This document shows positions 20,847 to 46,379 of a DNA stretch of 47,183 nucleotides, piece by piece; positions within the stretch are counted from its first letter, which is position 1; every line of letters begins with the position of its first letter. The stretch comes from an uncultured Candidatus Saccharibacteria bacterium (GTDB lineage: Bacteria > Patescibacteriota > Minisyncoccia > Phycocordibacterales > SIBU01). The translations under genes were made by a program, and so were the position numbers. Location of the stretch: assembly GCA_964430335.1 (NCBI GenBank), contig CAYSEN010000002.1, positions 1-47,183 of the forward strand, written 5' to 3'. The notes under the pieces were generated by a model. The model saw only the letters and a program-made list of their open reading frames with translations, was not told the DNA's origin and searched no databases.

Positions 20847-20875
20847 TTGACACCTTTTGACACTTCTGATAGAAT
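20847..20875 (+). promoter_or_regulatory. Near-consensus sigma70-type promoter for the glycan operon. The predicted TSS lies at or next to the ATG at 20882.
   Basis: TTGACA at 20847-20852, a 17-nt spacer, then TAGAAT at 20870-20875. The ATG begins 7 nt after the -10 box. ccttttgaca is tandemly duplicated. Confidence 0.6.
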
Positions 20876-20881
20876 CAGCCT

Positions 20882-21130
20882 ATGACAGAAGAGATAAAAC
20901 CTCACGCGGTTTATACAACCAGTGAGACCCAAGAAATTCTAAAAATCAGTGAAAGCACTATTAAAAGACTCTTGAAAAAGGGCCTTATTAGAGCCAACAA
21001 AATTGGTGGTCAATATAGAATTCTTGGCAAGGAGCTTCTACACATCCTCTCCCCTGACCTAGAAAAGGAGGCCACTAAGTCATACAGACAACTAAAAAGA
21101 AAGGTTGTACGTGAGATTAAAACTTGGTAA
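20882..21130 (+). CDS. Small excisionase/MerR-type HTH DNA-binding protein
   Basis: YTTSETQEILKISESTIKRLLKKGLIRANKIGGQYRI matches the HTH_17 pattern. 82 aa, first gene of the plus-strand block. Confidence 0.7.
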   Translation: MTEEIKPHAVYTTSETQEILKISESTIKRLLKKGLIRANKIGGQYRILGKELLHILSPDLEKEATKSYRQLKRKVVREIKTW

Positions 21131-21192
21131 AAAGTTAGAACATTACAAGGAGAGATCGTGTTATACTTTGAGACACTTTTAATAACAAAAAT

Positions 21193-22308
21193 ATGAAAAA
21201 AGACAAAAAACCAGCAAAGAAAGGGACAGAGGCAATCAAGAAAGCTTTTATTACAGGAATCACGGGTCAAGACGGTTCTTATCTTGCCGAATTACTCCTA
21301 GACAAAGGTTATGAAGTTCATGGACTAATCAGAAGAGCTTCAACATTTAACACAGGTAGAATTGATCATATTTACTTAGACCCTCACACCAAAGGTAACA
21401 AACTTTTCCTACACTACGGAGATCTCTCTGACGCAAGCAATCTAAAAAAATTAATTTTTGCTATCGCACCTGATGAAGTCTACAACCTCGGTGCACAGTC
21501 ACACGTAAAAGTATCCTTCGATATGGCTGAATACACGGGCGACATCACAGGTCTTGGAGCACTAAGAGTTTTGGAAGCAATTAAAGATTTTCAGGCTCAT
21601 GGTGGTAAAAAAATAAAATTCTACCAAGCGTCATCAAGCGAAATGTTCGGCTCAGCCCTACCACCACAAAACGAGAAGACTCCCTTTGCGCCACGCAGTC
21701 CATATGGAGTGGCTAAAACTTTCGCATACTACGGAACTGTAAATTGCCGTGAATCATATGACGTATTTGCCGTAAACGGAATTCTTTTTAATCACGAAAG
21801 TCCGAGACGAGGAGAAACCTTCGTGACACGAAAAATTACTCAGGCTGTAGCTCGAATCAAACTCGGTCTTCAAGACAAACTCTATTTAGGTAACCTAGAC
21901 GCCAAAAGAGATTGGGGTCATGCTCGCGACTATGTAGAAGCAATGTATCTCATGATGCAACTTCCAAAACCCGAGGATTTCGTAATCGCTACCGGCGAAC
22001 AACACACTGTCCGAGAATTTTGCGAACTAGCGTTTAAAGAAATCGGCATAAAAATAAAATGGCATGGCAAAGGTTTAGAAGAAAAAGGTATTGATTCTGA
22101 AACTGGTAATACTCTAATAGAAATCGACGATAAATATTTCAGACCAGCAGAAGTAAATTCTCTGATGGGCGATGCCACAAAAGCCTACAGCAAACTTGGT
22201 TGGAAACCGAAAACAACCTTCAGCGAACTGGTAAAAGAAATGGTAGCCTCAGACCTAAACGAGGAGTCCAAGAAACACATCTTGGCACAAAGCGGAAAGA
22301 AAAAATAA
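21193..22308 (+). CDS. gmd: GDP-mannose 4,6-dehydratase
   Basis: [42 protein letters not shown] and [17 protein letters not shown] are classic Gmd blocks. Confidence 0.95.
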
Positions 22309-22309
22309 A

Positions 22310-23251
22310 ATGAAGAAGGAATCAAAAATTTTCATTGCTGGACATCGTGGCTTGGTCGGAGGAGCTATCACGAAAAATCTTAAATCAAAAGGCTTCAATA
22401 ACCTTATCCTTAAGACACGAGAAGAATTAGATCTTCTAGACCAAAAAGCTGTCGAGAAATTCTTTCAAACTGAAAAGCCGGAATTTGTTTTTTTAGCGGC
22501 TGCAAAAGTTGGTGGCATCATGGCCAACAAAACTTATCCAGCACAATTCATTCAGGAAAATCTTACAATTCAGAACAACATCCTTGAAAGTGCTCGCAAA
22601 AGTGGCGTGACTAAACTGCTTTTCCTTGGAAGTTCTTGTATCTACCCAAGATTGGCAAAGCAACCAATAAAAGAAGAGGCTCTACTTTCTGGCCCGCTTG
22701 AGTCTACTAATAGAGCATACGCTGTGGCAAAAATCGCAGGAATCGTCACTTGCCAATCATACAACTCACAATATGGTACAAATTTCATCTCTGTAATGCC
22801 GACCAACCTCTACGGTCCAAATGACAATTTTGACCTAGAAAATTCTCACGTCCTCCCTGCCCTAATCAGAAAATTTCACGAAGCAAAAACTCTTGGAAAA
22901 AATGAAGTAACACTTTGGGGGACAGGAAAAGCTAAAAGAGAATTTTTACACGTAGAAGATTTAGCTGAGGCCTGTATTTTTCTTATGGAAAAATACAATG
23001 ATTCAGAAATTGTAAATATTGGAACAGGCATAGATATTTCTATTAAGAAATTGGCCGAGATGGTCAAAAAAGTTACAGACTTCAAAGGCAAAATTGTTTG
23101 GGATAAAACCAAACCAGACGGAACACCGAGAAAAGTCGTGAATGTTAATAAAATTCACAAATTAGGATGGAAGCACAAAATTGATTTAGCAAAAGGACTA
23201 GAATCAACTTACGATTGGTATTTGGAAAACTTACCAATTATTAAAAAATAA
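22310..23251 (+). CDS. fcl: GDP-L-fucose synthase (GDP-4-keto-6-deoxymannose 3,5-epimerase/4-reductase)
   Basis: IFIAGHRGLVGGAI, GSSCIYP, YAVAKIAG and TNLYGPNDNF. It follows gmd directly with a 1-nt gap. Confidence 0.93.
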   Translation: MKKESKIFIAGHRGLVGGAITKNLKSKGFNNLILKTREELDLLDQKAVEKFFQTEKPEFVFLAAAKVGGIMANKTYPAQFIQENLTIQNNILESARKSGVTKLLFLGSSCIYPRLAKQPIKEEALLSGPLESTNRAYAVAKIAGIVTCQSYNSQYGTNFISVMPTNLYGPNDNFDLENSHVLPALIRKFHEAKTLGKNEVTLWGTGKAKREFLHVEDLAEACIFLMEKYNDSEIVNIGTGIDISIKKLAEMVKKVTDFKGKIVWDKTKPDGTPRKVVNVNKIHKLGWKHKIDLAKGLESTYDWYLENLPIIKK

Positions 23252-23255
23252 AGTT

Positions 23256-24299
23256 ATGTCAGATTTCTATAAAAACAAAAATGTTGCGGTTACAGGAGGC
23301 CTAGGACTTATCGGTTCTTTTTTGTGTGAGGAATTATTGAAGGTTGGTGCAAACGTAATCCTTGTTGATGACGAATCAAAAGGCACATGGAAATATATAA
23401 AACACCTTCGCCACAAAGTAGATTTCCGAAAAAAAGATCTGACTGACCCAAAACAAGCTCTGTCATCACTTAAAGGAGCGGACTTCGTATTTCATCTTGC
23501 CTCAAGAGCTTATGGCGTTGGTTTTAGTCACAAAAATAATTTTGAAATGTTTCGTTTCAATGATCTAGTAAACACCAACGTGCTTGATTCTATCGCACAC
23601 AATAAACCAAGCCGAGCGCTAGTAGTTAGCTCAAGTTGTGTTTATCCAGACGACGGACCGACGCCAATGACAGATCAAAAGAACTTCGACGGTGAACCCG
23701 AGATGGTCAACTGGGGCTACGGCTGGGCGAAAAGAATTTTGGAATACAAAGCCAAAATCTACATGAGAGAAACCGGAATACCGATAACGATCGTCAGACC
23801 ATTTAATATTTACGGTGAAAGATATAATTGGGTTGGCCAAAATTCTCAAGCCATTCCGATGCTTACAAAAAAAATCTGTGACAGAGAAGACCCTATTATC
23901 GTCTGGGGTTCGGGAGAACAAAAAAGGACATACATCCACGCTGAAGACGCTGCAAGAATCATGATGCGTTTTGTAGAAAATGGATTTACTAAACAGCCCG
24001 TCAATATAGGTCTTGAAGAAACCATTTCTGTAAAAGAATTAGTAAAACAAATTGCGAAGTCGGCCGATATTGATGTGAACTTAGTTTTTGATAAAACCAA
24101 ACCAGAAGGTCGCCTCGTAAAAAGTGCAGACAGCAAGCTAATGAAACAAGCCCTAGGAAAAGATTTCAAAATTGAAATCGATATTGAAGAAGGCTTAAGC
24201 AGAATGGTTAATTGGTACAAAGAAACTTTTACAATGGAAGGTACAAAAGAAAAAATCAAAAAATTGAAAGTGAAGAGTCATAAAAATAATAAAAAATAA
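23256..24299 (+). CDS. NAD-dependent sugar-nucleotide epimerase/dehydratase (extended SDR) with a Lys-rich C-terminal tail
   Basis: VAVTGGLGLIGSFL is the Rossmann motif and YGWAK is YxxxK. The tail reads EKIKKLKVKSHKNNKK. Confidence 0.8.
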   Translation: MSDFYKNKNVAVTGGLGLIGSFLCEELLKVGANVILVDDESKGTWKYIKHLRHKVDFRKKDLTDPKQALSSLKGADFVFHLASRAYGVGFSHKNNFEMFRFNDLVNTNVLDSIAHNKPSRALVVSSSCVYPDDGPTPMTDQKNFDGEPEMVNWGYGWAKRILEYKAKIYMRETGIPITIVRPFNIYGERYNWVGQNSQAIPMLTKKICDREDPIIVWGSGEQKRTYIHAEDAARIMMRFVENGFTKQPVNIGLEETISVKELVKQIAKSADIDVNLVFDKTKPEGRLVKSADSKLMKQALGKDFKIEIDIEEGLSRMVNWYKETFTMEGTKEKIKKLKVKSHKNNKK

Positions 24300-24303
24300 A
24301 TTT

Positions 24304-25119
24304 ATGGTCACCGTTATCAAACCGAAAAAAACATTGAGCCTTGATGATCTCCGAGAAATCTGGGAATACAAAGGCCTTTTGTATTTTTTTGTTTGGCGTG
24401 ATCTTAAGGTCAGATACAAACAAACTATCGTGGGCGTAGGCTGGGCGATTTTTCAACCATTCATAAACATGGTGGTCTTCAGTGTCTTCTTCGGAAAATT
24501 GATCAAAGTGCCATCAGATGGAATTCCCTACCCAATATTCGTCTACACAGGCCTTTTGTTTTGGCAATTCTTTTCTAGCGCCCTTTCAGAAACTAGTAAT
24601 GCTCTTATTTCAAACGCTGCCATTGTTACAAAAGTTTATTTTCCTCGACTACTCCTACCAATCGCAGTGACCATCACAAAATTCGTGGACACTTTTGTGG
24701 CATCTCTAATTTTAATCGGCTTAATGTTTTACTACGGATTTGTACCTCACGCTCAAGCGATAATAGTCATACCAATAATTTTACTCATTTCATTTATGGC
24801 CGCGGTTGGTGGTGGACTTTTCCTTGCTTCAATTAACGTAAAATATAGAGATGTGCGATACGTCCTGCCGTTCTTCATACAAATGCTTCTATTCATAACG
24901 CCTGTTATTTACCCAGCATCTATAGCAGGAAAATACTCTTGGATTCTTGCGGTAAATCCAATGACAGGTGTCATTAAAGCAGCGAGAGGAAGCATTCTAG
25001 GAACTGAACCGGTCAACTGGCTACTACTCGGATTGTCTTTCATAGCAACAATGATAATTTTTGTAATCGGAATTATTTTCTTCAAAAAAACTGAAAGATA
25101 TTTTGCCGATATCGTATAA
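24304..25119 (+). CDS. wzm: Polysaccharide ABC exporter permease (ABC-2 type, Wzm/TagG-like)
   Basis: 271 aa with the N-terminal LLYFFVWRDLKVRYKQTIVGVGWAIFQP motif typical of Wzm/TagG/KpsM, and 6 TM helices. Confidence 0.88.
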   Translation: MVTVIKPKKTLSLDDLREIWEYKGLLYFFVWRDLKVRYKQTIVGVGWAIFQPFINMVVFSVFFGKLIKVPSDGIPYPIFVYTGLLFWQFFSSALSETSNALISNAAIVTKVYFPRLLLPIAVTITKFVDTFVASLILIGLMFYYGFVPHAQAIIVIPIILLISFMAAVGGGLFLASINVKYRDVRYVLPFFIQMLLFITPVIYPASIAGKYSWILAVNPMTGVIKAARGSILGTEPVNWLLLGLSFIATMIIFVIGIIFFKKTERYFADIV

Positions 25120-25123
25120 AAAC

Positions 25124-26392
25124 ATGGAACCAATAATTGAAATAAAAAATATAGGAAAGAGATACAACATTGCCGGACGTAAAAAAGGTTACGTTGCTCT
25201 TAGAGATATTTTGACCGAAGGTATCAAACACCCATTCGACAGTTTAAAGAAAACGGCAAAATCCGTTTTAGGAAAAAATAAAATGGAGACTTTCTGGGCG
25301 CTTAAAGATATAAATTTTTCTGTACAAAAAGGTGAAGCCGTTGGAATAATCGGTGCAAACGGAGCTGGAAAATCGACTCTCTTAAAAATCCTATCAAGAA
25401 TCACTCCGCCAACAGAAGGTGAAATCACTATTCGTGGACGAGTCGCTTCCCTTCTCGAAGTCGGAACCGGTTTTCATCCTGAGCTATCTGGCCGAGAAAA
25501 TGTTTTTCTGAATGGCGCTATTTTAGGAATGACTCGCGCTGAAATCGCTCAAAAATTTGATGCGATTGTGGCGTTTGCAGGAATTGGCGACTTTATAGAC
25601 ACTCCAGTAAAAAGATACTCGACTGGAATGTATGTTCGTCTCGCCTTCTCAATCGCCGCACATATCGAACCAGACATTTTACTTGTCGATGAAGTCTTGG
25701 CCGTTGGTGACGCGGAATTTCAGAAAAAGTGTCTAGGAAAAATGGAGGAAGTTACAGGAACCGCCGGACGAACGATTCTTTTTGTCAGCCACAACATGGC
25801 AGCCGTAGAAAAACTTTGCACCAAATCGATTCTCTTAAGAAAAGGACAGGTTGTCATGGTTGGAAAAACCAAAGATGTAATTGAAAAATACCTAAAATAT
25901 GAATATGAAAAAAATTCTGACGAGAATGCCATTTTCCCATTCAAGGAAAAGGACGTAATCATAAATTCATTCAACGTCACACAAAGTGGCGTAAAGACCG
26001 AAAACCTAGACACCGACAAACCCTTTGAAGTTGAAATCGATTTCGAAACATTAGCCGACCTAACAGAGTTTAGAATTGGAGTTTATGTAAGAAATGGTCT
26101 GGGCGACGTCTTGTTTAGATCCCTTGCCTCAGATTGGCATCCAGAATTTGAAAAAATTAAAAAAGGAAAATACAAAGCGAAATTATCCTTCCCAGAAAAA
26201 CTATTAAGCCAAGGAAATTACTTCCTCAGCCTTCATGTTAGTAGATATGGAATCAAAAATTACTTGGCAAGACAGGCAATCGAAAGAGGTGTGGTTGTTG
26301 GTCAATCAGCGTACTACAACCAAGGTCACCCTACAGAAAAAGCAGACTCGATGCTACTACTGAACAGAGAATGGAAACTGGAATCAATCTAA
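25124..26392 (+). CDS. wzt: Polysaccharide ABC exporter ATPase with an extended C-terminal (Wzt_C-like) domain
   Basis: Walker A GANGAGKST, signature YSTGM, Walker B ILLVDEVLAVGD. About 170 extra C-terminal residues look beta-rich (FEVEIDFETLADLTEFRIGVYVRN...NYFLSLHV). The ATG at 25124 is preferred over the TTG at 25103. Confidence 0.85.
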   Translation: MEPIIEIKNIGKRYNIAGRKKGYVALRDILTEGIKHPFDSLKKTAKSVLGKNKMETFWALKDINFSVQKGEAVGIIGANGAGKSTLLKILSRITPPTEGEITIRGRVASLLEVGTGFHPELSGRENVFLNGAILGMTRAEIAQKFDAIVAFAGIGDFIDTPVKRYSTGMYVRLAFSIAAHIEPDILLVDEVLAVGDAEFQKKCLGKMEEVTGTAGRTILFVSHNMAAVEKLCTKSILLRKGQVVMVGKTKDVIEKYLKYEYEKNSDENAIFPFKEKDVIINSFNVTQSGVKTENLDTDKPFEVEIDFETLADLTEFRIGVYVRNGLGDVLFRSLASDWHPEFEKIKKGKYKAKLSFPEKLLSQGNYFLSLHVSRYGIKNYLARQAIERGVVVGQSAYYNQGHPTEKADSMLLLNREWKLESI

Positions 26393-26425
26393 TGTCTAAA
26401 TATCCAGTATCTAACATCTAATAAA

Positions 26426-27472
26426 ATGATTACTGTTCGACTTACATCCGAATACCCAAAAGTTCCTCTGGAGAGACAAACTCCAGGTTCACTTGGTATT
26501 TGGGGAAACTACAAATTCATCATCGATCAACCTACAGAAAAGGCTGATTGGTGGGTAGTGCTCGGTGACCTTCCTGAAAAACAAACCACAATTTGCCCGA
26601 AAGAAAACACCATTTTCATCAATCAAGAAACCGAACACATTCGAACCTACAGAAAGGATTTTACTGACCAGTTTGCGACAGTAATTACCTGCCAAAGGCC
26701 ACTAAATCACCCTCACAAAATCTACACTCAGCAAGCACACCTGTGGCATGTTGGATGGTTTGGATCCGGCTCTGGGGTAGATCCAAAAGACTACAAAAAA
26801 ATGTTCACAACGTATGACCAGCTCAAAGCCATTACCGATATTCCAAAAACCAAATTACTTTCAAACGTAACTTCTTCAAAAAACCATACCGAGGGTCAAA
26901 AACTCAAACACGCCTTTCTAAAATTAGTGAAAGAAAAATATGGCGATCAATTTGGTAATTTTGGTGCGGGGATAAATATGCTTCGCGACAAATGGGACGG
27001 CATCGCTCCTTACAAATACTATCTTGCGATCGACAATAGCTATGTAGAAGATTATTGGACAACTAACCTAGGAGACGCCTATCTTGCTGGAGCCTACCCA
27101 ATCTATTATGGCCACCCTAGCGTTCTTAAATATTTTTCATCAGACGCTTTAACCGTAATCGACATCACCAAACCAGAGGAGGCTCTCAAAAAAATTGAGG
27201 AGGTTATTTCTGGAAATTACTACGAAAAATACAAGGATGAAATTTGGAAGGCTCGCGATTTAGTTATGAACAAATATAACTTGTTCAACCTGATTGCTGA
27301 GACAATCGACAGTCTTCCTAAAAACGGAAAGTCGGTCAAACTGACCCTTAAACCTGAAAAGAAGCCTTGGCTTAAGAAAAAAGTCATTGCAACTTTAAAA
27401 GGAAAAAACGGGTTATATGATATGGCGAAAAAAGTCTATAGAACATATCGTCAAATTCGTTATAAAAAATAA
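26426..27472 (+). CDS. GT10-like (alpha-1,3/4-fucosyltransferase-like) glycosyltransferase with a basic amphipathic C-terminal tail
   Basis: YKYYLAIDNSYVEDYWTTNLGDAYLAGAYPIYYGHPSV aligns by eye with the H. pylori FucT block YKFNLCFENS...YVTEKILDAY...IPIYWGSPSV recalled from memory. It sits beside gmd/fcl. Confidence 0.6.
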   Translation: MITVRLTSEYPKVPLERQTPGSLGIWGNYKFIIDQPTEKADWWVVLGDLPEKQTTICPKENTIFINQETEHIRTYRKDFTDQFATVITCQRPLNHPHKIYTQQAHLWHVGWFGSGSGVDPKDYKKMFTTYDQLKAITDIPKTKLLSNVTSSKNHTEGQKLKHAFLKLVKEKYGDQFGNFGAGINMLRDKWDGIAPYKYYLAIDNSYVEDYWTTNLGDAYLAGAYPIYYGHPSVLKYFSSDALTVIDITKPEEALKKIEEVISGNYYEKYKDEIWKARDLVMNKYNLFNLIAETIDSLPKNGKSVKLTLKPEKKPWLKKKVIATLKGKNGLYDMAKKVYRTYRQIRYKK

Positions 27473-28479
27473 TGCTTACTTTAGTCCAAAAACAAACGAT
27501 TGATTCGTTCATACAAAAACTAAAATCCGGAATCTACACCGAGGTTGTAAATCCGTGTCTTTGTGGCGCTCACACAGACAGCCAGATTGCTAGCAAAGAT
27601 CGCTACGGGATCGATCAAAAAATTGTTCTATGTGAAGAATGTGGCCTGATGAGAGCTGACCCTTACTACGACGAAAAAACCTTAGGTTCATTCTATGAAA
27701 ACGAATATCGCAAAATTTATCGTAACCCAAATCACGAAAGCGTTTCAGATTTTTTTAAGGAACAGACCGGTTTTGGAAAATATATTTTTGATTTCCTAAA
27801 GCACAACTATTTTAAAGGCGAGATAAAAGGTAAAAAGGTTTTCGAGATCGGTTGTGGCGCCGGAGGAATATTGCAGACCTTCAAAGATTCTGGCAACGAA
27901 GTTTTTGGCTGTGACTTTGACGAAGAGTATCTAAACTTCGGAAAGTCCAAAGGTCTAACTCTTGAGAGAGATGACGCAGAAACCCTGAGTAAGCATGGAC
28001 AGGCAGACATAGTGATTCTAAACCACACCCTAGAGCATATAAAAAATCCAACCGCTACTTTAGCTACAGTAAAAAAAATTCTAAAAGATGACGGGGTTCT
28101 CTATATTGCCTTACCAGGAATTTACTATATTCACGATACTTACCACGGCAAATTAAATAGTTATCTTCAAAATGCTCATGTTTGGTATTTCACATTAAAA
28201 ACCCTAAATTCCCTACTCGCGCGCTCGGGATTTAAATTGGTACACGGCAACGAGGTGATCATGGCCATTTACCAAAAAGGAGTATCCGAAAATCTACAAA
28301 AAGAAAGTTCAGAAAAAATTAAAAAGTATTTAAGAAAGAATCAAATCCTAAGACCTTACCTAGCATTGAAAAATTTTTCACCCTCTCACCAATTAAGACA
28401 ATTTACACTTGGTGCCCTTAGAAAAAACCAATCCGTATACAATAAAGCCAAGGGTTTGTACCACAAATTGAAAAAATAA
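27472..28479 (+). CDS. Class I SAM-dependent methyltransferase with an N-terminal Cys4 element
   Basis: Motif I VFEIGCGAGGIL, Cys pairs CLCG...CEECG, and a TAATG stop/start overlap with the upstream gene. Confidence 0.8.
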   Translation: MLTLVQKQTIDSFIQKLKSGIYTEVVNPCLCGAHTDSQIASKDRYGIDQKIVLCEECGLMRADPYYDEKTLGSFYENEYRKIYRNPNHESVSDFFKEQTGFGKYIFDFLKHNYFKGEIKGKKVFEIGCGAGGILQTFKDSGNEVFGCDFDEEYLNFGKSKGLTLERDDAETLSKHGQADIVILNHTLEHIKNPTATLATVKKILKDDGVLYIALPGIYYIHDTYHGKLNSYLQNAHVWYFTLKTLNSLLARSGFKLVHGNEVIMAIYQKGVSENLQKESSEKIKKYLRKNQILRPYLALKNFSPSHQLRQFTLGALRKNQSVYNKAKGLYHKLKK

Positions 28480-28480
28480 A

Positions 28481-29134
28481 ATGCCAAAAAAGTCAGACAA
28501 AAACTCAAAAAAATCGGTTGAGAAAAAACAGTACAAAGCTGTTCTCTTTGACCTTGATGGTGTTTTGGTAAACATGCCAGACGGTCACTACGAAGCACTC
28601 AACAAAGCTTTGGCACTTTTCGGTGCCCAGATCGGTCGCGAAGAGCATCTTCAGTATTTTAACGGCCTACCAACTCGTAAAAAATTAGAGGAGTTGGAAA
28701 ATCAGGGTCGCCTACCTAAAGGCCTCCGAGAATTTATTAACAACGTAAAACAAAAGCACACCAAAGATATTATTCCAAAATATTGCCCACCAGACTATTC
28801 AAAAATCATTTTACTTCAACATCTTAAAGACAAGGGCTACACACTTGCCTGCTGTTCAAACTCAATCAAAGAAACTCTTCATCTAATGCTAAAATCCTCA
28901 CACCTATTTGATTTCTTTGATTTAATTGTCGGCAACGATGAAGTGCAAAATCCTAAACCTCACCCAGAAACATATCTATACGCCTTTCAAAAATTGGGAG
29001 TAGAACCTCACGAATGCATCATCGTAGAAGATGCTCCGCCTGGAATCGCGGCCGCAAAAGCTAGTGGAGCAACCGTCATCGAAGTACGAGGAGTTGAAGA
29101 TGTGAACTTGGCCTTATTCGAAAATTTAATTTAA
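28481..29134 (+). CDS. HAD-superfamily phosphatase (beta-phosphoglucomutase-like subfamily IA)
   Basis: AVLFDLDGVLV is motif I, CSNS is motif II, and IIVEDAPPGIAAAKASG covers motifs III/IV. Confidence 0.8.
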   Translation: MPKKSDKNSKKSVEKKQYKAVLFDLDGVLVNMPDGHYEALNKALALFGAQIGREEHLQYFNGLPTRKKLEELENQGRLPKGLREFINNVKQKHTKDIIPKYCPPDYSKIILLQHLKDKGYTLACCSNSIKETLHLMLKSSHLFDFFDLIVGNDEVQNPKPHPETYLYAFQKLGVEPHECIIVEDAPPGIAAAKASGATVIEVRGVEDVNLALFENLI

Positions 29135-29137: not shown

Positions 29138-29458
29138 ATGAAAATTCTAAAACTAAAGGATTTTACGAGAGGTTGGATGATTGGTGATTTTACACCAGCA
29201 ATATTACAAACAAAAAATTTTGAATTCGGTGTCAAAGACTACAAAGCCGGAGACCAAGAAGATGCGCATCTGCACAAAGTAGCAACGGAATTTTCGGTTA
29301 TCGTTTCAGGTGAATTTAAAATGAACGACCAAATTCTTAAAAAAGGAGATGTCTTAGTGATGGAACCAAACGACATTGCAAACTTTAGTTGTATTAGTGA
29401 TGGTTCTACTGCGGTCATAAAGGTGCCGTCCGTTAAAGGAGATAAATATTTAGTATAA
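29138..29458 (+). CDS. Small cupin-fold protein
   Basis: 106 aa with HLHKVATEFSVIVSGEFKMNDQILKKGDVLVMEP, which resembles the cupin motifs. Confidence 0.55.
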   Translation: MKILKLKDFTRGWMIGDFTPAILQTKNFEFGVKDYKAGDQEDAHLHKVATEFSVIVSGEFKMNDQILKKGDVLVMEPNDIANFSCISDGSTAVIKVPSVKGDKYLV

Positions 29459-29460
29459 AA

Positions 29461-29485
29461 AATTCTACAGTGGATCTGTAGAATT
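29461..29485. terminator. Hairpin closing operon 1; also serves the convergent small minus-strand ORF
   Basis: Stem aattctacag, loop tggat, stem ctgtagaatt (10 bp). taaaaa lies on its 5' side, which is a T-run on the minus strand. Confidence 0.6.
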
Positions 29486-29490
29486 ACGAA

Positions 29491-29784
29491 TCAGAAACTG
29501 CTTGCAAACACAAGGAGTGCATACAGGAAAATTGGCAAGGATAGCCACCTGACTATCTTAATCGCGAGGGAAAAACTGGTAACACCTCCTCCTTTAGGAT
29601 CGGGTGCAAAAGTGATGGCAAAAGAGAGTATGGACAGAACTGCCATCGTTGCACTCAAAAGCCGAAGCTCAGAAGAGTCCCGTCTCAAATTTGGGATCGC
29701 GAAAAATATCATGACGTTGACGACACCGATAAAAAAACAGACCGGTGTCTTGTGTTTACCAACCCAAGTGATTTGTCTGCGCAT
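29491..29784 (-). CDS. Small hydrophobic protein, unknown function (intermediate GC)
   Basis: 97 aa with about 3 hydrophobic spans. No family recognised, so coding status is uncertain. Confidence 0.35.
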   Translation of the reverse strand: MRRQITWVGKHKTPVCFFIGVVNVMIFFAIPNLRRDSSELRLLSATMAVLSILSFAITFAPDPKGGGVTSFSLAIKIVRWLSLPIFLYALLVFASSF

Positions 29785-29906
29785 AAAAATCTAGGCTCGG
29801 CAAATTTTAATATAAAAAGAAAACAAGGTCGATAAATTTTCATAAAAAATGAGCATTAGACAATAGTAATTGAAAAAAACCAAAACTTTTACTCAAAAAT
29901 TTGCAA

Positions 29907-29937
29907 GAAAAAAGAGCGATCGAATGAACGATCGCTC
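29907..29937 (-). terminator. Rho-independent terminator of the high-GC IMPase-like gene
   Basis: Minus strand: gagcgatcg, loop ttcatt, cgatcgctc, followed by tttttt. Confidence 0.8.
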
Positions 29938-29965
29938 CGTGAATTGACTGAAAGAACTGATAGGG

Positions 29966-30892
29966 CTATTGGCCCTTGGACGCCCTGACGGCGCGGACCA
30001 AGACATCGAGTGTCTCTTGGTTGTTGGCCGTAACCAGGATGTCGTAGTCCATGACTGACAGCGGGTTGCACTCGGTGAGAGTGCCGTTGTCTTCGACTCG
30101 GAATGCCGTCGCACATCCGCCGGCCTGGAGGACGAGAAGGACCGGGCAGACGTCCCAATAACCGCCGATTGCAGTAGTGATGGCGCCGACGGCTCCCTTG
30201 CCGCCGTGAGCGATGAGCGCATGATGAATCCCGTTACTTCCGAGCATCAACTTGCCGGCCTTCTGGTCGATCAGACCTTCGAGTCGATTGAGTTCGGACC
30301 GCGTCAGAATCTCCCGCCCATCGCGCTTGAAGCCGGGATAGCAGTCGGTGAACACCCGGGTCTTCGAGCTAATTGGCTCCGATGACACACTGCATACTGA
30401 CATGTCATCAGGCGTCGGTTCACTGCCGTCCTCGGAGTAAGCCATTACCATAGTCCCAACGCCCTTCTGGCCGACCCAAATCTGGCCGGTCTGGGGGTTT
30501 CCCACCACACAGAAGAACACCTCCTTGCATGACCTGCTGTAGGCCGCGGCGATGACCGTCGAGGTTCCTGCCCCAACTGCAAACGGCATGGAGCCGTCGA
30601 GAGCATCGAGGCATACAATGATGTCGCTCGTAGGACCCTCAGGTCCAGTCTCCTCGCCGTGCACCAGAACCCCAGGAATTGTCAGCAGGATTTTCTTCCC
30701 CGCAGCCTCGCTGGCCTTGTCGGCCGGAAGGGCCGCCAAGGTGCCGTCGGACTTGCTGCCAAGTGCGTCGATACACCGACCTCGTTGGAACCTTCGTACG
30801 ACAGCCATGGATCGGAGAACAGCCCCGACCACCTGACCACGGCTGTCGCGGTTGAATTCACGATCGTATGGGACCACTTCTGTTGATTTCAT
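29966..30892 (-). CDS. Inositol-monophosphatase/FBPase-superfamily phosphatase-like protein with high GC
   Basis: HGEETG is a metal-binding acidic pair. CLDALDGS is a variant of the DP[IL]DGT motif. YWDVCPVLLVLQAGG is a variant of WDxAAGxxxxxEAGG. Hand-counted G+C in 30001-30240 is 50, 63, 62 and 63% per 60 nt. Confidence 0.6.
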   Translation of the reverse strand: MKSTEVVPYDREFNRDSRGQVVGAVLRSMAVVRRFQRGRCIDALGSKSDGTLAALPADKASEAAGKKILLTIPGVLVHGEETGPEGPTSDIIVCLDALDGSMPFAVGAGTSTVIAAAYSRSCKEVFFCVVGNPQTGQIWVGQKGVGTMVMAYSEDGSEPTPDDMSVCSVSSEPISSKTRVFTDCYPGFKRDGREILTRSELNRLEGLIDQKAGKLMLGSNGIHHALIAHGGKGAVGAITTAIGGYWDVCPVLLVLQAGGCATAFRVEDNGTLTECNPLSVMDYDILVTANNQETLDVLVRAVRASKGQ

Positions 30893-31038
30893 TTGTTTTT
30901 TCTACCCGATAAATCGGGCATTTCGAACCGTTTTGGAACCCCTGTTGCCCTCAAGCGAGTGCAAAAACGTCAAAGATCCCCTAAAACTAACCTTTGACAA
31001 TTTAGCACAAATCTGGAAATATGTCAATATATTTAGCC

Positions 31039-31084
31039 ATAAATTAGCGCCTAAATGTGCTAGAATAGTAACCAATAAATTAGC
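31039..31084 (+). promoter_or_regulatory. Candidate operon-2 promoter: an extended -10 box flanked by two exact ATAAATTAGC repeats
   Basis: TGcTAGAAT lies at 31058-31066. ATAAATTAGC occurs at 31039-31048 and 31075-31084. Further TTAGCC motifs lie at 31033-31038 and 31091-31096. The ATG is at 31103. Confidence 0.45.
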
Positions 31085-31102
31085 CGTTAATTAGCCAAAA
31101 AC

Positions 31103-31930
31103 ATGAAAATCATCTTTCCAATGGCAGGTCTCGGTAGTCGTTTTGCAAAGGTTGCAGATAAAAATTCTGAATATCTAAAACCTAAGCCATTTATAAATGT
31201 TAAAGGCTTTCCTATGATCCGCTGGGCCACAGGTTCACTTCCCTTTTTTGAGCACGCCGGACAAAAAGTAACTGGCAATCTTCGTGTCACTCCAAAAGAT
31301 GTGGCCTTCATTATTTTGAAGGAGCACAACGATGCATATCAAATGGAGAAGCAACTGAAGGAAATTTATTCAGACGATATCACTGTTATTGTGATTGATA
31401 AGCTCACTCGTGGTGCTTCAGAAACTGTTCTTAAGGCCAAGGACTTTATCAATCCTGAAGAAGACCTCCTGCTTTCTGACACCGACCACTTTTTTGATGG
31501 CCGGGGTTTCGCCGATTTAATTGCAAATAAAGACGCGGACACTGCGGGAATCATTCCTGTCTTCCGCGCTCGAAATGATGGTATTCCAAAGTGGAGCTAC
31601 ACCTTGACTAAGCCTGACAGCAATCACATTTCTCAGGTGGCAGAAAAAAGTCGTGAACTTATGGAAAAAGGAGCTTATGCAAATATTGGCGCCTACTATT
31701 TTTCAAAAGGAAAATATTTTATTGCAGAAGCTGAGAAAGCTATCGAAAGAAATGAAAGAGCTGGCGATCCTGTTAAAGGAGAGTTTTATATCGCACCTCT
31801 ATATCAAAAATTGCTTGATCAAGGAATGAAATTGCAGGCCGCTGTAATTCCCGAAATGTGGGGATTGGGTACACCGGAAGATTTAGAATTTTTCTTGGCT
31901 AATTGTCCAATTAACAAACCATCATTTTAA
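31103..31930 (+). CDS. Sugar-phosphate/alcohol-phosphate nucleotidyltransferase-like protein (GT-A fold)
   Basis: The N-terminal IIFPMAGLGSRF...KPFINVKGFPMI signature, plus GLGTPEDLEFF near the C-terminus. Confidence 0.6.
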   Translation: MKIIFPMAGLGSRFAKVADKNSEYLKPKPFINVKGFPMIRWATGSLPFFEHAGQKVTGNLRVTPKDVAFIILKEHNDAYQMEKQLKEIYSDDITVIVIDKLTRGASETVLKAKDFINPEEDLLLSDTDHFFDGRGFADLIANKDADTAGIIPVFRARNDGIPKWSYTLTKPDSNHISQVAEKSRELMEKGAYANIGAYYFSKGKYFIAEAEKAIERNERAGDPVKGEFYIAPLYQKLLDQGMKLQAAVIPEMWGLGTPEDLEFFLANCPINKPSF

Positions 31931-31946: not shown

Positions 31947-32702
31947 ATGAGTAAAATCCTAAACATCGTAGTTCCAATGGCCGGTCGTGGCACTCCTTTT
32001 AAGGAGGCAGGTTACGCTTTTCCTAAAGCACTTGTCGACATCAAAGGTAAAACCATGATCGAAGTGGTAACTGGAAATCTAAAACCAAACTGCGAGCATA
32101 AATTTATTTTTGTCTGCCAGAGAGAACATTATGAAAAGTACGACCTATATAACATTTTCAAAAATGCTACGGACAATCAGTTTGAAGTGGTCCAGATAAA
32201 TGGTCAGACTGAGGGCGCAGCCTGTACAGTGCTGACCGCGGTTTCTCATATCAACAATGACAACGACCTGATTATTGCAAACTCAGACCAATTTATAGAA
32301 ACCGGTATAAATGATTTCATAAAGGAAGGACGAAAAGATGACAAAGACGGACTGATCATGACTTTCAAGGCCAGTCACCCAAAGTGGAGTTATGTTCGTA
32401 CAGATGATAGCGGACGAGTAATTGAAGTCGCTGAGAAAAAAGTGATTTCCAAAAACGCCACTGTGGGAGTTTACTATTTCAAAAAAGGAAGTGATTTTGT
32501 GGAATCAGCTCAATCAATGATTCACAAAAACATAAGACACAACAACGAGTTTTATGTTTGCCCTACTTACAATGAAATGATTCTTCGCGGTAAAAAAATC
32601 TACACCAAAGAAATTTCTGCTGAAAAAATGCACGGACTAGGAACACCAGAGGAGCTCAATCATTTTTTGAAAGAATTGGAAAAAGGAAAAATCAAAATTT
32701 AA
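31947..32702 (+). CDS. Nucleotidyltransferase-like protein, paralogue of the preceding gene
   Basis: IVVPMAGRGTPFKEAGYAFPKALVDIKGKTMI, KWSYVRTD (compare KWSYTLTK in the neighbour) and GLGTPEELNHF. Confidence 0.6.
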   Translation: MSKILNIVVPMAGRGTPFKEAGYAFPKALVDIKGKTMIEVVTGNLKPNCEHKFIFVCQREHYEKYDLYNIFKNATDNQFEVVQINGQTEGAACTVLTAVSHINNDNDLIIANSDQFIETGINDFIKEGRKDDKDGLIMTFKASHPKWSYVRTDDSGRVIEVAEKKVISKNATVGVYYFKKGSDFVESAQSMIHKNIRHNNEFYVCPTYNEMILRGKKIYTKEISAEKMHGLGTPEELNHFLKELEKGKIKI

Positions 32703-33613: not shown

Positions 33614-34531
33614 ATGCTAGATTTCGCAAAAAAAACACTTTGGAATATTGGTTTTAAATTTGGCAGATTTATCACCATTCACACCAGACCAGCAAAAGTA
33701 GATGGTCTGCCTTTCATTGGATCAAAAAATCCAATCGATGAATCCTGCGCCATCATCATGCAGGGTCCGATTAAGCATGAGTATAATTTCACCTACGAGA
33801 CAGTGCGTTTCTACCTTCAACACTACCCTTCTGCCACAATTATCATTTCAACCTGGGAAGGCGAAGACACAAGCGCTATAGAAAGTCTCAAAGCTGAAAA
33901 AGTGAAAATTTTAAAATGCGCTAAACCGGTTCATCCAGGACCTTGTAATGTAAACATGCAAATTACAAATACTAAAGCCGGAATGGATGAAGCTGTCAGA
34001 CTTGGACTTAAATACTCTCTCAAAACTCGCGCCGACCAAAGAATGTACGGTATCAACTGTCTTGAATTCATGATTAACATGATCGAACAATTCCCTGTTT
34101 TGGGACCAACATCTCAGAACAAGAGAATTCTTGCGACTAACACCGGCACAAGTAAACACCGAAACTATCATTTTTCTGATTTGTTTATGTTTGGAACTGC
34201 GATCGACATGCAGACTTATTGGACTCCGGAAATAATTACTGACAAATCAATCAATCCTAGAGATTTTTTGGCAGAGGGATATTTGTTTACTCAGTTTTTG
34301 ACACACACAGGCTGGAAAATAAAAGACACGCTAGAAGATTTTATTGAAGCATTAGGCGAGAGATGTGTCGTTGTAGACAATGAAGACATCGATGTATACT
34401 GGCCGAAATATGCAGCACAGCAACGTGAATACCGATTGAAAAATTACGTAAGACCAGCTATCGAAATCACCTTCAAAATATGGATGAATGAAGGTTTGGT
34501 TCCCGCACTTAAAAAATATGGAAAAAAATAA
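33614..34531 (+). CDS. Conserved hypothetical glycan-locus protein (possibly WavE-like LPS synthesis family)
   Basis: 305 aa, soluble, tightly coupled to its neighbours. The WavE guess comes only from context and a faint recollection of the IIMQGPI...IIISTWE pattern. Confidence 0.3.
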   Translation: MLDFAKKTLWNIGFKFGRFITIHTRPAKVDGLPFIGSKNPIDESCAIIMQGPIKHEYNFTYETVRFYLQHYPSATIIISTWEGEDTSAIESLKAEKVKILKCAKPVHPGPCNVNMQITNTKAGMDEAVRLGLKYSLKTRADQRMYGINCLEFMINMIEQFPVLGPTSQNKRILATNTGTSKHRNYHFSDLFMFGTAIDMQTYWTPEIITDKSINPRDFLAEGYLFTQFLTHTGWKIKDTLEDFIEALGERCVVVDNEDIDVYWPKYAAQQREYRLKNYVRPAIEITFKIWMNEGLVPALKKYGKK

Positions 34532-44243: not shown

Positions 44244-44247
44244 AACC

Positions 44248-45471
44248 ATGTCCAAAAAAATCATAGAGGAAGACATCGCAAGAATAGCAAAAGGTTTGGG
44301 AACAGATGCCAAAAAATTTGAGGGCAAAACTATTTTCATTTCTGGAGGAGGAGGTTTTTTGGGGAAATATTTGATTGGCACACTTTGCTATTTAAATGAC
44401 AATGTTCTCAAAACTCCTTGCCGAATTATTTCAGTAGACAACTTTATTACCGGACGACCTCATCCACATTTTAATTACAAAGGTAGACCAGACATTTTGG
44501 AAGTTTGGGGAGATATTACCCAACCTCTTCCTGTTCGTGAACCACTTCATTACATTGTCCACGCTGCTGGACTAGCTTCTCCTGTCTATTACAAAAAATA
44601 CCCACTTGAGACCATCGATAGCGCCGTAACGGGAGTTAGACATCTTTTGGAATTAGCAAAGAAAAACAAAGAAACAGTAGAGGGTTTCCTATTCTTCAGT
44701 TCAAGTGAAATTTACGGTGATCCAGACGAAAAGGCAGTGCCTACACCAGAGACTTATCACGGATATGTCTCTTCAGTCGGTCCACGTGCTTGCTACGACG
44801 AATCAAAGAGATTAGGAGAAACGATCACAACAATTTACAACGAACAGTTCGATGTACCGGGGAAAATTGTTCGACCATTCAACGTATTCGGACCAGGAAT
44901 GGGACATAACGACAAGAGAGTTCTGCCGATGTTTGCTTACAAGGCGCTAAACAAAGAAACTATTCCGGTACACGGAGATGGTCACCAAACCAGGACTTTC
45001 TGTTACATTACCGACGCGGTGACAGGATTCCTAAAAGTTCTACTTATCGGCCAACCAGGACATGCGTACAACATTGGAAATGAAGACAATGAGATTTCAA
45101 TGGCTGATCTTGCAAAAATGTTTGTCGACATTGAAGGTGGAGGAGCTTCATTTGAGCTAATTCCCTACCCAGAAAATTATCCTGCTGGTGAACCACAGAG
45201 AAGATGTCCTGACCTAAAAAAGGCAAAAGATCATCTAAAATATAATCCTGAAATGTCACTTCGAGAGGGATTAACACGATTTATCGAATGGTGCAGAAAT
45301 GACGAAACTTATATAGATCAAAGCAAGAGAACAGCCACCAAGACTACTCCGGAAAATAAACCGGAGAGCAAAAAAGCTGTCATCTCCAATAAAAAAATAA
45401 AAACGGCTAAAAAAGCTTCTCAAAAATCAAAAGCAAAGCCTAAAGCAAAATCACGTCGCGGTAAAAAATAA
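44248..45471 (+). CDS. UDP-glucuronate decarboxylase-like extended SDR with a ~55-aa Lys-rich C-terminal tail
   Basis: IFISGGGGFLGKYL, YDESKRLGE (YxxxK) and GDGHQTRTFCYITDAV resemble UXS/ArnA-type enzymes. The tail ends KKAVISNKKIKTAKKASQKSKAKPKAKSRRGKK. Confidence 0.7.
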   Translation: MSKKIIEEDIARIAKGLGTDAKKFEGKTIFISGGGGFLGKYLIGTLCYLNDNVLKTPCRIISVDNFITGRPHPHFNYKGRPDILEVWGDITQPLPVREPLHYIVHAAGLASPVYYKKYPLETIDSAVTGVRHLLELAKKNKETVEGFLFFSSSEIYGDPDEKAVPTPETYHGYVSSVGPRACYDESKRLGETITTIYNEQFDVPGKIVRPFNVFGPGMGHNDKRVLPMFAYKALNKETIPVHGDGHQTRTFCYITDAVTGFLKVLLIGQPGHAYNIGNEDNEISMADLAKMFVDIEGGGASFELIPYPENYPAGEPQRRCPDLKKAKDHLKYNPEMSLREGLTRFIEWCRNDETYIDQSKRTATKTTPENKPESKKAVISNKKIKTAKKASQKSKAKPKAKSRRGKK

Positions 45472-45479
45472 TTATAGTG

Positions 45480-46379
45480 ATGAAAAATATTGCAGTCATA
45501 GGCGCTGGCAAATGGGGCAAAAATATAATCTCTACCCTAGAAAAAATGAACAGGGTTAATTTGAAGTACCTCTGCGCCAGAGATCAGATATCCCTAGCGC
45601 CATTTTCAAATGAATACACGAAGCTGACAGACTGGCATGTGCTTCTTTCAAAAAATGATTTGGATGCCGTAATAATCGCTACCCCGGCTTCTACTCACAC
45701 AAGTATGGCGATCTCATTTTTGGAAAAAAATATCGCTGTGTTTGTAGAGAAGCCGATGTCTCTAAGTATTGCTGAAGCAAAAAAACTTAAAAAGGCCTCT
45801 GAAAAAAGTAAGGCGGTGTTTATGGTTGGCTATCAATATGTTTTTAATCAAAATGTTGATTTTATTAAAAAGGAGATTTTGAATAAAAAAATCGAGGCCA
45901 TTTCATTCATGAAAACCGAGCATATTAAAAGCCCGACAAGATCTGACATCGACATTTTTTGGGATGTTGCATCCCACCCACTTTCAATTTATCAACATCT
46001 TTTTGGCCAGCCGAGGATAAAATCAGTGAAAGGTAAAATGAAGCCAGACTTCGTATCGGCGGAGGTTTCGTTTGAAAATGCTCCTAAATTAAAAATTAAA
46101 GCTGCCAACGAGGGTGAAAAGAAAATTCGACAAATTGCTTTTGAGACTAAAATACAAAAAATTTTAATAGATGAGACTCTTGATGAGAAAAAATTATCGA
46201 TTAGCAAGAATGGTAAGACAAATCATCCAAAAATTGTTCAAATAGAACCGCTACTAAGTGAGCTCAATCATTTTGTAGAATGCCTAGAAAAAAACCATCC
46301 ACCTGTAACAAATATCAATTTTGGATTTCAGGTAACTGAGTGGATGGAAACTATCTGCAAGGCGCTAAAAAATAAATAG
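45480..46379 (+). CDS. Gfo/Idh/MocA-family NAD(P)-dependent sugar oxidoreductase
   Basis: IAVIGAGKWGKNII is the Rossmann motif and VFVEKPMSLSIAEAKKL is the EKP motif. Confidence 0.75.
   Translation: MKNIAVIGAGKWGKNIISTLEKMNRVNLKYLCARDQISLAPFSNEYTKLTDWHVLLSKNDLDAVIIATPASTHTSMAISFLEKNIAVFVEKPMSLSIAEAKKLKKASEKSKAVFMVGYQYVFNQNVDFIKKEILNKKIEAISFMKTEHIKSPTRSDIDIFWDVASHPLSIYQHLFGQPRIKSVKGKMKPDFVSAEVSFENAPKLKIKAANEGEKKIRQIAFETKIQKILIDETLDEKKLSISKNGKTNHPKIVQIEPLLSELNHFVECLEKNHPPVTNINFGFQVTEWMETICKALKNK

Follow-up and report, generated by a model that had tools for sequence, protein, structure and literature searches.

A predicted ABC-transporter-dependent surface-glycan region in an uncultivated Patescibacteria bacterium

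How does a bacterium of the candidate phyla radiation (CPR, the Patescibacteria) make and export a heavily decorated surface glycan when the genes at hand include neither an initiating transferase nor a flippase? The question is raised by positions 20847-46379 of a 47,183-bp stretch of contig CAYSEN010000002.1 (38.6% GC), referred to here as the window. CPR bacteria combine tiny genomes with a life attached to other cells, and almost nothing is known of their surface chemistry. Judged from its gene content, the interval forms the core of a region of 40 kb or more devoted to biosynthesis and export of surface glycan. The locus is an ABC-transporter-dependent glycan cluster of familiar design, set in a CPR bacterium, and it is larger and more modular than a sequence-only reading of the same DNA had taken it to be. 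We consider it probable that a single locus builds, methylates and exports a fucose- and nonulosonate-containing surface glycan by this design. This extends known biology to a new lineage and is not a new kind of system. Paceibacteria genomes measure about 0.5-1.2 Mb, so that the region, with its 40 kb or more, would occupy a few percent of one. The region also offers testable candidates, including an exporter with a domain predicted to read a cap, a TPR protein that resembles ligases, a cassette of six genes conserved among relatives, a widespread NeuB-TIM fusion and a methyltransferase-kinase family.

The CPR-like host proposed earlier was supported by SecA. Its best relatives were 65-67% identical and came mostly from metagenome-assembled genomes (MAGs) labelled Paceibacterota or Paceibacteria; those with a lineage label were named Paceibacterota, Paceibacteria or Saccharibacteria. 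By this marker the host is an uncultivated Patescibacteria/CPR bacterium of the Paceibacteria type. Homologues of the locus proteins stemmed from MAGs labelled Parcubacteria, Woesebacteria, Sungiibacteriota and Falkowbacteria.

Predicted export by Wzm and Wzt and the missing initiating enzyme

Pfam and NCBIfam profiles were searched against the window open reading frames (ORFs) of at least 90 aa. Every gene family listed in the sequence-only reading was recovered, the DUF115 protein marginally, and the homology searches did not reassign the glycosyltransferases or methyltransferases. Coordinates below refer to the plus strand unless the minus strand is indicated. The export route is suggested by wzm (24304..25119) and wzt (25103..26392), which overlap by 17 nt. 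Wzm is an ABC-2 permease (ABC2_membrane, 58 bits) with 29% identity to E. coli O8 Wzm. Wzt joins an ATPase (ABC_tran, 81.5 bits) to a C-terminal domain of the type that binds carbohydrates (Wzt_C, 38.9 bits; cutoff 30.4). Over 391 aa it shares 36% identity with Wzt of E. coli O8, in an alignment that spans the C-terminal domain to residue 390, and it matched full-length Aquifex Wzt (PDB 7k2t/8dku) with an E value of 1e-71. The pair and these similarities support the earlier proposal that the glycan is assembled in the cytoplasm and exported by an ABC transporter.

The reported absence of a WecA/WbaP-type phosphoglycosyltransferase and of Wzx was reproduced, as no match to Bac_transf, Glycos_transf_4 or Polysacc_synt was found in the window ORFs or in the 10 kb past the window end (about 57 kb in all). 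However, the absence is not remarkable. Lack of both proteins is the norm in ABC-transporter-dependent clusters, and the E. coli O8 and O9 clusters, represented here by strains IAI1 (O8) and AR_0014 (O9), contain neither. Four related CPR loci also had no phosphoglycosyltransferase; a Wzx-like flippase was present in loci L092 and L094. Since the O8/O9 clusters and the four CPR loci have no initiating enzyme, the absences seem typical of the pathway class. Initiation on undecaprenyl phosphate is usually carried out by a WecA- or WbaP-type enzyme encoded outside the cluster.

Comparison with known systems pointed to the same design. The polymannan clusters of E. coli O8/O9a (Klebsiella O5/O3) likewise combine wzm with a wzt whose product has the C-terminal domain. 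They place a methyltransferase (O8) or a 708-aa methyltransferase plus kinase (O9) beside GT4 enzymes, and the window likewise has a methyltransferase-kinase gene beside a GT4 gene. The O8/O9 clusters (manC, manB, wzm, wzt, wbdD and GT4 genes) and the window also agree in holding GDP-sugar supply genes inside the cluster, with no initiating transferase and no Wzx. In contrast to these systems, the sugars suggested for the window are fucose, nonulosonate and C-methyl types instead of mannose, and far more tailoring genes are present. A CPR host has no lipopolysaccharide outer membrane, so the acceptor must differ from that of E. coli O8/O9.

The slg clusters of Geobacillus stearothermophilus and Aneurinibacillus belong to monoderm hosts. 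There, Wzm/Wzt export a complete chain with an O-methylated non-reducing cap, and the Wzy_C-domain protein WsaB moves the glycan, a rhamnan or similar, to protein. The slg clusters are not known to have a nonulosonate module, an IMPase/NT/GDPD cassette or a methyltransferase-kinase, all of which are encoded in the window. The O-antigens of Rhizobium etli/tropici and of Coxiella burnetii phase I contain GDP-mannose-derived 6-deoxyhexoses (fucose) and are exported by Wzm/Wzt. They bear several O-methylations, or C-methyl sugars made by TylC3-type C-methyltransferases, and they are linked to lipid A-core in diderm hosts. These systems are not known to contain a NeuB fusion or the cassette, and WavE is linked to WrtF by weak fold similarity only.

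Predicted sugar supply, chain extension and capping

The genes form two tightly packed plus-strand runs, called operons 1 and 2 below. Each run had one strong promoter-like site ahead of it and hairpins behind it, with no strong internal signals, which fits the long polycistrons proposed earlier. Junctions of 0-5 nt or overlaps had been claimed throughout. The TAATG overlaps at 27472 and 37302 proved exact and most junctions lay between -44 and +5 nt, but four were wider (33, 16, 22 and 62 nt).

Operon 1 encodes Gmd, GDP-mannose 4,6-dehydratase (21193..22308; TIGR01472, 563 bits, cutoff 415), and Fcl, GDP-L-fucose synthase (22310..23251; NF047922, 490 bits, slightly under the cutoff of 500). 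Both enzymes of the GDP-L-fucose de novo pathway are thus present, with Fcl narrowly under its equivalog cutoff. The third short-chain dehydrogenase/reductase (SDR), at 23256..24299, is a distant Fcl paralogue (Epimerase, 160.8 bits; best NCBIfam match Fcl, 125 bits, far under cutoff) and probably serves as a reductase or epimerase on a second GDP-6-deoxyhexose. After wzm and wzt come a GT10-like protein resembling alpha-1,3/4-fucosyltransferases (26426..27472; Glyco_transf_10, 28.5 bits, cutoff 23.9), which is 45% identical to a homologue with a GT10 match in locus L087, and a class I S-adenosylmethionine (SAM) methyltransferase with a Cys-rich N-terminal segment (27472..28479; Methyltransf_23, 78.8 bits).

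Operon 2 carries further transferases and tailoring enzymes. A class I SAM methyltransferase (37302..38039; Methyltransf_11, 58.8 bits) is 61% identical to its counterpart in L087. It is followed by the methyltransferase-kinase, a GT4 enzyme (39833..41074; Glycos_transf_1, 96.4 bits) weakly similar to WbdA, WbdB and WbdC, a GT11 enzyme of the alpha-1,2-fucosyltransferase family (41076..41933; Glyco_transf_11, 119.3 bits) and a GT2 enzyme (41956..42987; Glycos_transf_2, 120.9 bits). This block, from methyltransferase to GT2, is conserved in L087 at 41-61% identity, in the company of three WavE paralogues, GT10, CTP_transf_3 and an unfused NeuB. In a JGI 3300045392 contig (L083, 8730-9588) the GT11 gene was split by an additional T in a T7GT6 tract (near 41665), which phase variation or an assembly error could explain. 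Operon 2 ends with a protein of the NDP-sugar C-methyltransferase type, with Zn-binding, methyltransferase and C-terminal domains (43050..44243; Methyltransf_13, _23 and _14), an extended SDR and a Gfo/Idh/MocA oxidoreductase. The SDR (44248..45471; Epimerase, 138.9 bits) is dehydratase/decarboxylase-like with a Lys-rich tail, and its NCBIfam matches to dTDP-glucose dehydratase and UXS were all under cutoff. The oxidoreductase (45477..46379; GFO_IDH_MocA, 81.8 bits) had UDP-GlcNAc 3-dehydrogenase as its best NCBIfam match (114 bits, under cutoff).

Upstream of operon 1 lies a first component of the nonulosonate module, a CMP-nonulosonate/ulosonate synthetase-like cytidylyltransferase (20140..20853, minus strand; CTP_transf_3, 98.5 bits; best NCBIfam match PseF, 130 bits, cutoff 205.7), whose true start is probably the ATG at 20808. 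Operon 2 encodes a fusion of a NeuB-type (non)ulosonate synthase, a SAF domain and a xylose-isomerase-like TIM barrel (AP_endonuc_2) at 34488..36422, with an alternative start at 34518. Pfam gave 288.7 bits for NeuB and 43.1 bits for SAF. In the PDB, the NeuB part matched meningococcal SiaC (1xuu; E 2.5e-54) and the C-terminal TIM barrel matched MJ1311 (3wqo; E 1e-5). The equivalog cutoffs were not reached (NeuB_NnaB, 356 bits against 399.65; PseI, 259 against 340.25). The fusion is widespread: among the 150 best representatives of clusters at 50% identity, about 90 aligned end to end, and one subgroup of 730-777 aa has an additional N-terminal segment of about 110 aa. The next protein is MptE-like/DUF115 (36412..37302; PF01973, 35.7 bits, cutoff 34.6). 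We propose it, with weak support, as a candidate nonulosonate transferase; its sequence search of the PDB gave no significant match.

No gene for the precursor enzymes NeuC, PseB/C/H/G or LegB/C/H/G was recognized, as Epimerase_2, DegT and hexapeptide acetyltransferase families were not found in the window and the next 10 kb. Because the aminotransferase, acetyltransferase and NeuC are missing within about 57 kb, the nonulosonate might be a non-aminated, KDN-like acid, a suggestion of low confidence. Known nonulosonic acid modules, such as that of the general O-glycan of Tannerella forsythia, likewise comprise a NeuB-family synthase, a CTP_transf_3 synthetase and a DUF115-type candidate transferase. 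The T. forsythia glycan also unites fucose and methyl groups with nonulosonate in one glycan, as the gene content of the window suggests. Unlike these modules, the window has no NeuC, PseB/PseC or LegB/LegC, its NeuB is fused to a TIM barrel, and export would be by an ABC transporter instead of Wzx.

The gene at 38044..39828 had been read as a methyltransferase. Its product does contain a Pfam methyltransferase domain (residues 99-212), but the APH-type kinase half had been overlooked. The 594-aa protein is a fusion of a Zn-ribbon, a SAM methyltransferase and an APH/choline-kinase-type kinase. Many homologues of about 650 aa carry PF01636 (APH) after the methyltransferase domain, and residues H484, G485, D486, N491 and D504 of the HGDxxxxN...D motif were invariant. 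The family profile matched the LicA choline kinase (4r77; E 1e-5) and also APH enzymes in the PDB; phmmer with the kinase half returned nothing from the PDB. In the AlphaFold2 (AF2) model (pLDDT 91), the globular kinase lobe ended at residue 594 with no long helix after it. Foldseek with the full model gave methyltransferase-domain matches for all of the top 50, and WbdD was not among them. The order of methyltransferase then kinase, with the catalytic residues kept, is that of E. coli O9a WbdD, but the coiled-coil ruler and membrane-anchoring tail is absent from the model. We rejected orthology with WbdD, as there was no significant similarity to the O8 or O9 protein: the best O9 BLASTP E value was 0.18, confined to the catalytic loop, and the hhalign probability was 3%. 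An anomeric or small-alcohol kinase is a live alternative for this protein.

The last component lies upstream. The sequence-only reading had noted a Wzy_C-type ligase-like TPR fusion there, and this was confirmed (17603..20044, minus strand; Wzy_C, 78.6 bits, plus many TPR families). The O-antigen-ligase-like membrane domain makes the protein a candidate extracytoplasmic glycan ligase or O-oligosaccharyltransferase. Wzy_C homologues adjoin the conserved cassette in both L094 and L102, an arrangement in favour of a functional link with this ligase-like gene.

These parts suggest the following scheme. Polyprenyl phosphate would be primed by a phosphoglycosyltransferase encoded elsewhere. The chain would then be extended at the cytoplasmic face by at least six transferases, namely the GT10-like, WavE, MptE-like, GT4, GT11 and GT2 proteins, together with GT4 enzymes encoded downstream of the window. 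Donors would include GDP-L-fucose from Gmd and Fcl, a second GDP-6-deoxyhexose from the Fcl paralogue, a C-methyl- or keto-modified sugar from the C-methyltransferase, SDR and Gfo enzymes, and a CMP-activated nonulosonate, perhaps a KDN-like one. The cassette might supply an NDP-activated unit of an undescribed kind. Three O-methyltransferases and the methyltransferase-kinase would decorate or cap the chain. These proteins and the nonulosonate module are the candidates for making a cap, and none of them is homologous to a proven terminator. The finished chain would be exported by Wzm/Wzt, with the C-terminal domain of Wzt probably reading the terminal cap, and outside the membrane the Wzy_C-TPR protein would move it onto a protein or lipid acceptor.

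Several observations weigh against this scheme. The carrier chemistry is an assumption, as the search of about 57 kb gave no initiating transferase. Scores of NeuB and of the CMP-synthetase fell under their equivalog cutoffs, and the MptE-like assignment was marginal. The methyltransferase-kinase shows no detectable WbdD homology and no coiled-coil tail, and the glycan loci that hold its distant homologues have no wzm/wzt; its proposed role in capping the chain is therefore an analogy only. Finally, the relatives L092 and L094 couple the cassette to a Wzx-type flippase instead of Wzm/Wzt. Such differences indicate reassortment of the modules, and more than one glycan may be encoded in the window.

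A conserved cassette across the operon boundary

The cassette begins at the end of operon 1 with a HAD-IA hydrolase/mutase of the beta-phosphoglucomutase family (28481..29134; HAD_2, 122.6 bits; TIGR02009, 115.7 bits), 71-75% identical in L092, L094, L100 and L101. A 106-aa cupin follows (29138..29458; Cupin_2, 24 bits, under cutoff). Its homologues are 51-63% identical in L092-L094, L101 and L105, and lie directly after the HAD gene in L092, L093, L094 and L101. On the minus strand, at 29966..30892, is the gene of a 308-aa phosphatase of the inositol monophosphatase (IMPase)/FBPase superfamily (Inositol_P, 52 bits; 59.5% GC). The superfamily motifs EE, DPxDG[ST] and WD are kept, and the metal-binding and catalytic residues E80, E81, D96, D99, G100 and W246-D247 were invariant or at least 90% conserved in our alignment (A2).

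Operon 2 opens with two paralogous nucleotidyltransferases. NT1 (31103..31930) is a divergent sugar- or alcohol-phosphate nucleotidyltransferase with no Pfam match, and NT2 (31947..32702) matched NTP_transferase with 46.8 bits. In the PDB, only the uncharacterised entry 4evw resembles NT1 (E 2.8e-8) and NT2 (E 3e-22). In L092-L094, L100 and L101, NT1 homologues are 59-67% and NT2 homologues 60-70% identical; NT1 is 32-33% identical to NT2 homologues. Next is a GDPD-family phosphodiesterase (32704..33612; GDPD, 54.9 bits), to whose N-terminal catalytic part the PDB GDPD entries match. It is 48-54% identical in related loci and 26% in L100, while IMPase is 32-60% identical in related loci. The WavE-family protein (33614..34531; WavE, 63.3 bits) gave an AF2 model with pLDDT 89.5, which Foldseek aligned with GT6 and WrtF at E values of about 1e-4; it is predicted to be a GT-A-fold transferase.

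This cassette, composed of HAD_2, cupin, IMPase (usually beside GDPD), NT1 and NT2, and often followed by WavE, recurs in 12 Patescibacteria loci besides the window, some of which hold only part of its members. Our comparison set included L087, L092-L094, L100-L102 and L105 among others. In the genome scan for IMPase, a single-sequence query gave no match and an alignment-based query found the loci. Altogether 31 IMPase homologues were found, and the two with names came from a Parcubacteria-group MAG and an unclassified 'bacterium' MAG. Exact-sequence look-ups of IMPase and of the NeuB fusion (both candidate starts) gave no result. A literature search on WavE, 4EVW, CPR O-antigen-type loci and the cassette found nothing specific.

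The two-operon description needs one qualification. The two packed runs are real features of the sequence, but the interval is interrupted by minus-strand ORFs at 29459-31102, which encode a 97-aa membrane-like protein and the 308-aa IMPase-family protein. The cassette straddles this boundary, with HAD and cupin closing operon 1 and NT1 and NT2 opening operon 2. In L100, from a Sungiibacteriota MAG, the order is as in the window: gmd, fcl, wzm (69% identical), wzt (51%), HAD, IMPase/GDPD, NT1 and NT2. The recurring cassette and the order kept in L100 suggest that the operon junction is an old, conserved arrangement and that the cassette ties both runs together.

This bears on whether the region is one functional unit. 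It could instead be a glycan island with at least two independent pathways, in which operon 1 makes a fucose-type polymer exported by Wzm/Wzt, and operon 2 with the CMP-synthetase makes an oligosaccharide, methylated and containing nonulosonate, that the Wzy_C-TPR protein or the MptE/Maf-like transferase would attach to protein (pilin or S-layer) by O-glycosylation. The reassortment of modules is consistent with this. The cassette stands beside Polysacc_synt (Wzx-like) genes in L092 and L094, and the methyltransferase/methyltransferase-kinase/GT4/GT11/GT2 block accompanies another gene set in L087, with no wzm/wzt in 22 kb. The separate promoters and terminators of the two runs, and the further GT4 genes, carbamoyltransferase and GT-C enzyme encoded downstream, could be understood in the same way. 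However, the cassette that straddles both operons is kept with wzm/wzt and gmd/fcl in L100, which argues for a single functional unit. Genes of the fucosyltransferase type are found in both operons, whereas gmd and fcl are in operon 1 only, and no second exporter was found within about 57 kb. We regard two independent pathways as unlikely, though they deserve consideration.

The function of the cassette itself allows other explanations. In a Lic-like scavenging line, GDPD would free a (phospho-)alcohol from host glycerophosphodiesters, the APH-type kinase would phosphorylate it, a nucleotidyltransferase would activate it and a transferase would attach it to the glycan, with IMPase and HAD included, giving a teichoic-acid-like or phospho-substituted polymer. 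LicA was the sole kinase-domain PDB match below an E value of 1e-4, and the top Foldseek matches of the methyltransferase domain were phosphoethanolamine N-methyltransferases; this preference among methyltransferases was slight, as all had E values of 1e-8 to 1e-9. NT1 and NT2 are dissimilar to ManC and RfbA, GDPD keeps its catalytic N-terminal part, and the genes for IMPase and GDPD lie side by side in most of the related loci and were transferred together in L094. On the other hand, the Pfam search of the window gave no LicD, TagF or Stealth-type phosphotransferase, and the model of WavE shows an ordinary GT-A fold. Nor do the methyltransferase-kinase block and the cassette always accompany each other: IMPase is absent from L087, and the methyltransferase-kinase from L092 and L094. 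A Lic-like line is accordingly rather doubtful.

Alternatively, the cassette might be a supply line for GDP-mannose and GDP-fucose and not for decoration, in which the IMPase-family protein would act as an FBPase, the cupin as an isomerase, HAD as a mutase and a nucleotidyltransferase as guanylyltransferase. The cassette is accompanied by gmd/fcl in the window and also in L092 and L100, IMPase weakly matches a bifunctional FBPase/IMPase in NCBIfam, and manA, manB and manC are otherwise absent from the region. Yet BLAST showed no similarity of NT1, NT2 or the cupin to E. coli ManC, or of HAD to ManB, and the four proteins were rejected as ManC/ManB or RfbA equivalents on this ground. A supply line would also leave the two nucleotidyltransferase paralogues and the conserved GDPD unexplained, and the sequenced stretches of L094, L101 and L105 contain the cassette without gmd/fcl. 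We consider it very unlikely.

As a further possibility, the cassette may make an undescribed nucleotide-activated block or phospho-substituent, to which the methyltransferase-kinase would then add a methyl-phosphate-like cap read by the C-terminal domain of Wzt. Together they could produce a CPR-specific surface glycan, whose mosaic alleles would reflect selection by hosts or phages on the attachment surface of an episymbiont. This extended proposal is speculative, and its truth as a whole seems a long way short of probable.

The mosaic alleles are most evident at the IMPase gene, whose GC content at third codon positions (GC3) is 0.70 against 0.29-0.39 in its neighbours. Its conservation in the recurring cassette of 12 other loci implies that it is not a stray insertion. 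The gene was GC-richer than its own locus in 11 of the 12 related loci and GC-poorer in L100. At the equivalent cassette position in L094 (7776-10556), a GC-rich island comprises IMPase (0.57), GDPD (0.55) and a 221-aa protein of no family (0.58), with flanks of about 37% GC. Between two strains of the window organism that occur together, the IMPase coding sequence differed by about 10% (84 substitutions and small indels), and the strains were otherwise about 99% identical. The two alleles share 93.6% amino-acid identity and are both about 60% GC. The divergence ended at the IMPase start codon, and NT1 and GDPD differed by 0.3-0.6%. Elevated differences were also seen in the NeuB fusion and the 37302 methyltransferase (2.7% each) and in GT11 (1.6%). 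The simplest reading of these patterns is repeated allele exchange with higher-GC relatives, which is common in surface-glycan loci.

An assembly chimera as the source of the 60%-GC gene was ruled out. Independent assemblies from five JGI samples (3300045345, 3300045348, 3300045392, 3300045378 and 3300045377) and two SRA runs (SRR16481186 and SRR23702464) reproduced the locus at 98.6-99.99% identity, with both IMPase and a second GC-rich gene included, and IMPase homologues occupy the equivalent cassette position in the 12 other loci.

Transcription signals and flanking genes

The best sigma-70-like promoter match of the region stands at the beginning of the interval (20847..20875; TTGACA, 17 nt, TG-n-TAGAAT), with 11 of 12 matches and an extended -10 element. 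The ATG of an 82-aa HTH_17 DNA-binding protein (20882..21130; PF12728, 47.3 bits, cutoff 27) lies 6 nt past its end, and the mRNA of this first gene of operon 1 may be nearly leaderless, with the promoter directly ahead. The gene occupies a 339-nt stretch before gmd that seemed intergenic, and an 82-aa HTH_17 gene precedes gmd in L092 too. The gene list of the sequence-only reading was thus incomplete, as the HTH_17 gene, a small membrane ORF and the IMPase-family gene had been overlooked.

At the operon boundary, a terminator-like hairpin (29461..29485; 10-bp stem, then a T run) lies between the convergent cupin gene and orf97, a 97-aa hydrophobic ORF of 45.6% GC with no family and uncertain coding status (29491..29784, minus strand). 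The IMPase gene has signals of its own on the minus strand: a promoter-like site at 30999..31027 (TTGACA, 17 nt, TAAATT with TG; 10 of 12 matches) and, after the gene, an intrinsic-terminator-like hairpin at 29913..29938 with a 10-bp stem and 6 GC pairs, then TTTTTCTT. In the span 21193-46379, many coding sequences close with Lys-Lys and a TAA stop, and the ATG of the following gene comes 0-4 nt after it (AAAAATAAAATG). No Shine-Dalgarno sequence of the GGAGG type was found ahead of any start in this span. These junctions suggest translational coupling or A-rich initiation.

The limits 20847-46379 and the size of 25 kb did not stand. Glycan genes lie on both sides, and 46379 is an end imposed by the limit of the window, not a biological boundary. 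The Wzy_C-TPR and CMP-nonulosonate synthetase-like genes are upstream, and contigs of the same population run at least 10 kb past the window end with more glycan genes (L097, 1-9907). They encode three GT4 enzymes, a further group-1 (GT4-type) transferase, an SDR, an AlgX-like SGNH protein, a 620-aa carbamoyltransferase with SxtJ-like and DUF5989 partners, and then a PMT_2-like GT-C enzyme. A strong hairpin (46385..46411; 12-bp stem, 9 GC pairs) separates the end of operon 2 from a convergent gene for a 226-aa protein, p226 (46418..47098, minus strand; 52.6% GC), which has no family assignment (weak DUF218, E 1e-3) and was present in all re-sampled contigs. No p226 homologue was found in the related loci, and the protein showed no similarity to the 221-aa GC-rich proteins of L094 and L087, of which it was rejected as a counterpart.

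Further upstream, no tRNA was recognized and no Rfam family matched, as in the rest of the window. Three NUDIX hydrolase genes and a HAD hydrolase gene are clustered directly downstream of secA (10852-13035, minus strand). Their neighbours are a pair of generic ABC-2 exporter genes (9288-10824) and a small gene of the cytidylyltransferase-like kind (8769-9269). Assignment of these as TagGH and TagD was unsupported, since the ATPase is of the generic DrrA type and the cytidylyltransferase scored below every equivalog cutoff. An IS200-like Y1 transposase is encoded at 3726-4400 on the plus strand (Y1_Tnp, 36 bits). An ORF of more than 994 aa (3-2984, minus strand) runs off the window start, and a weak N-terminal HTH_17-like stretch was its sole family match.

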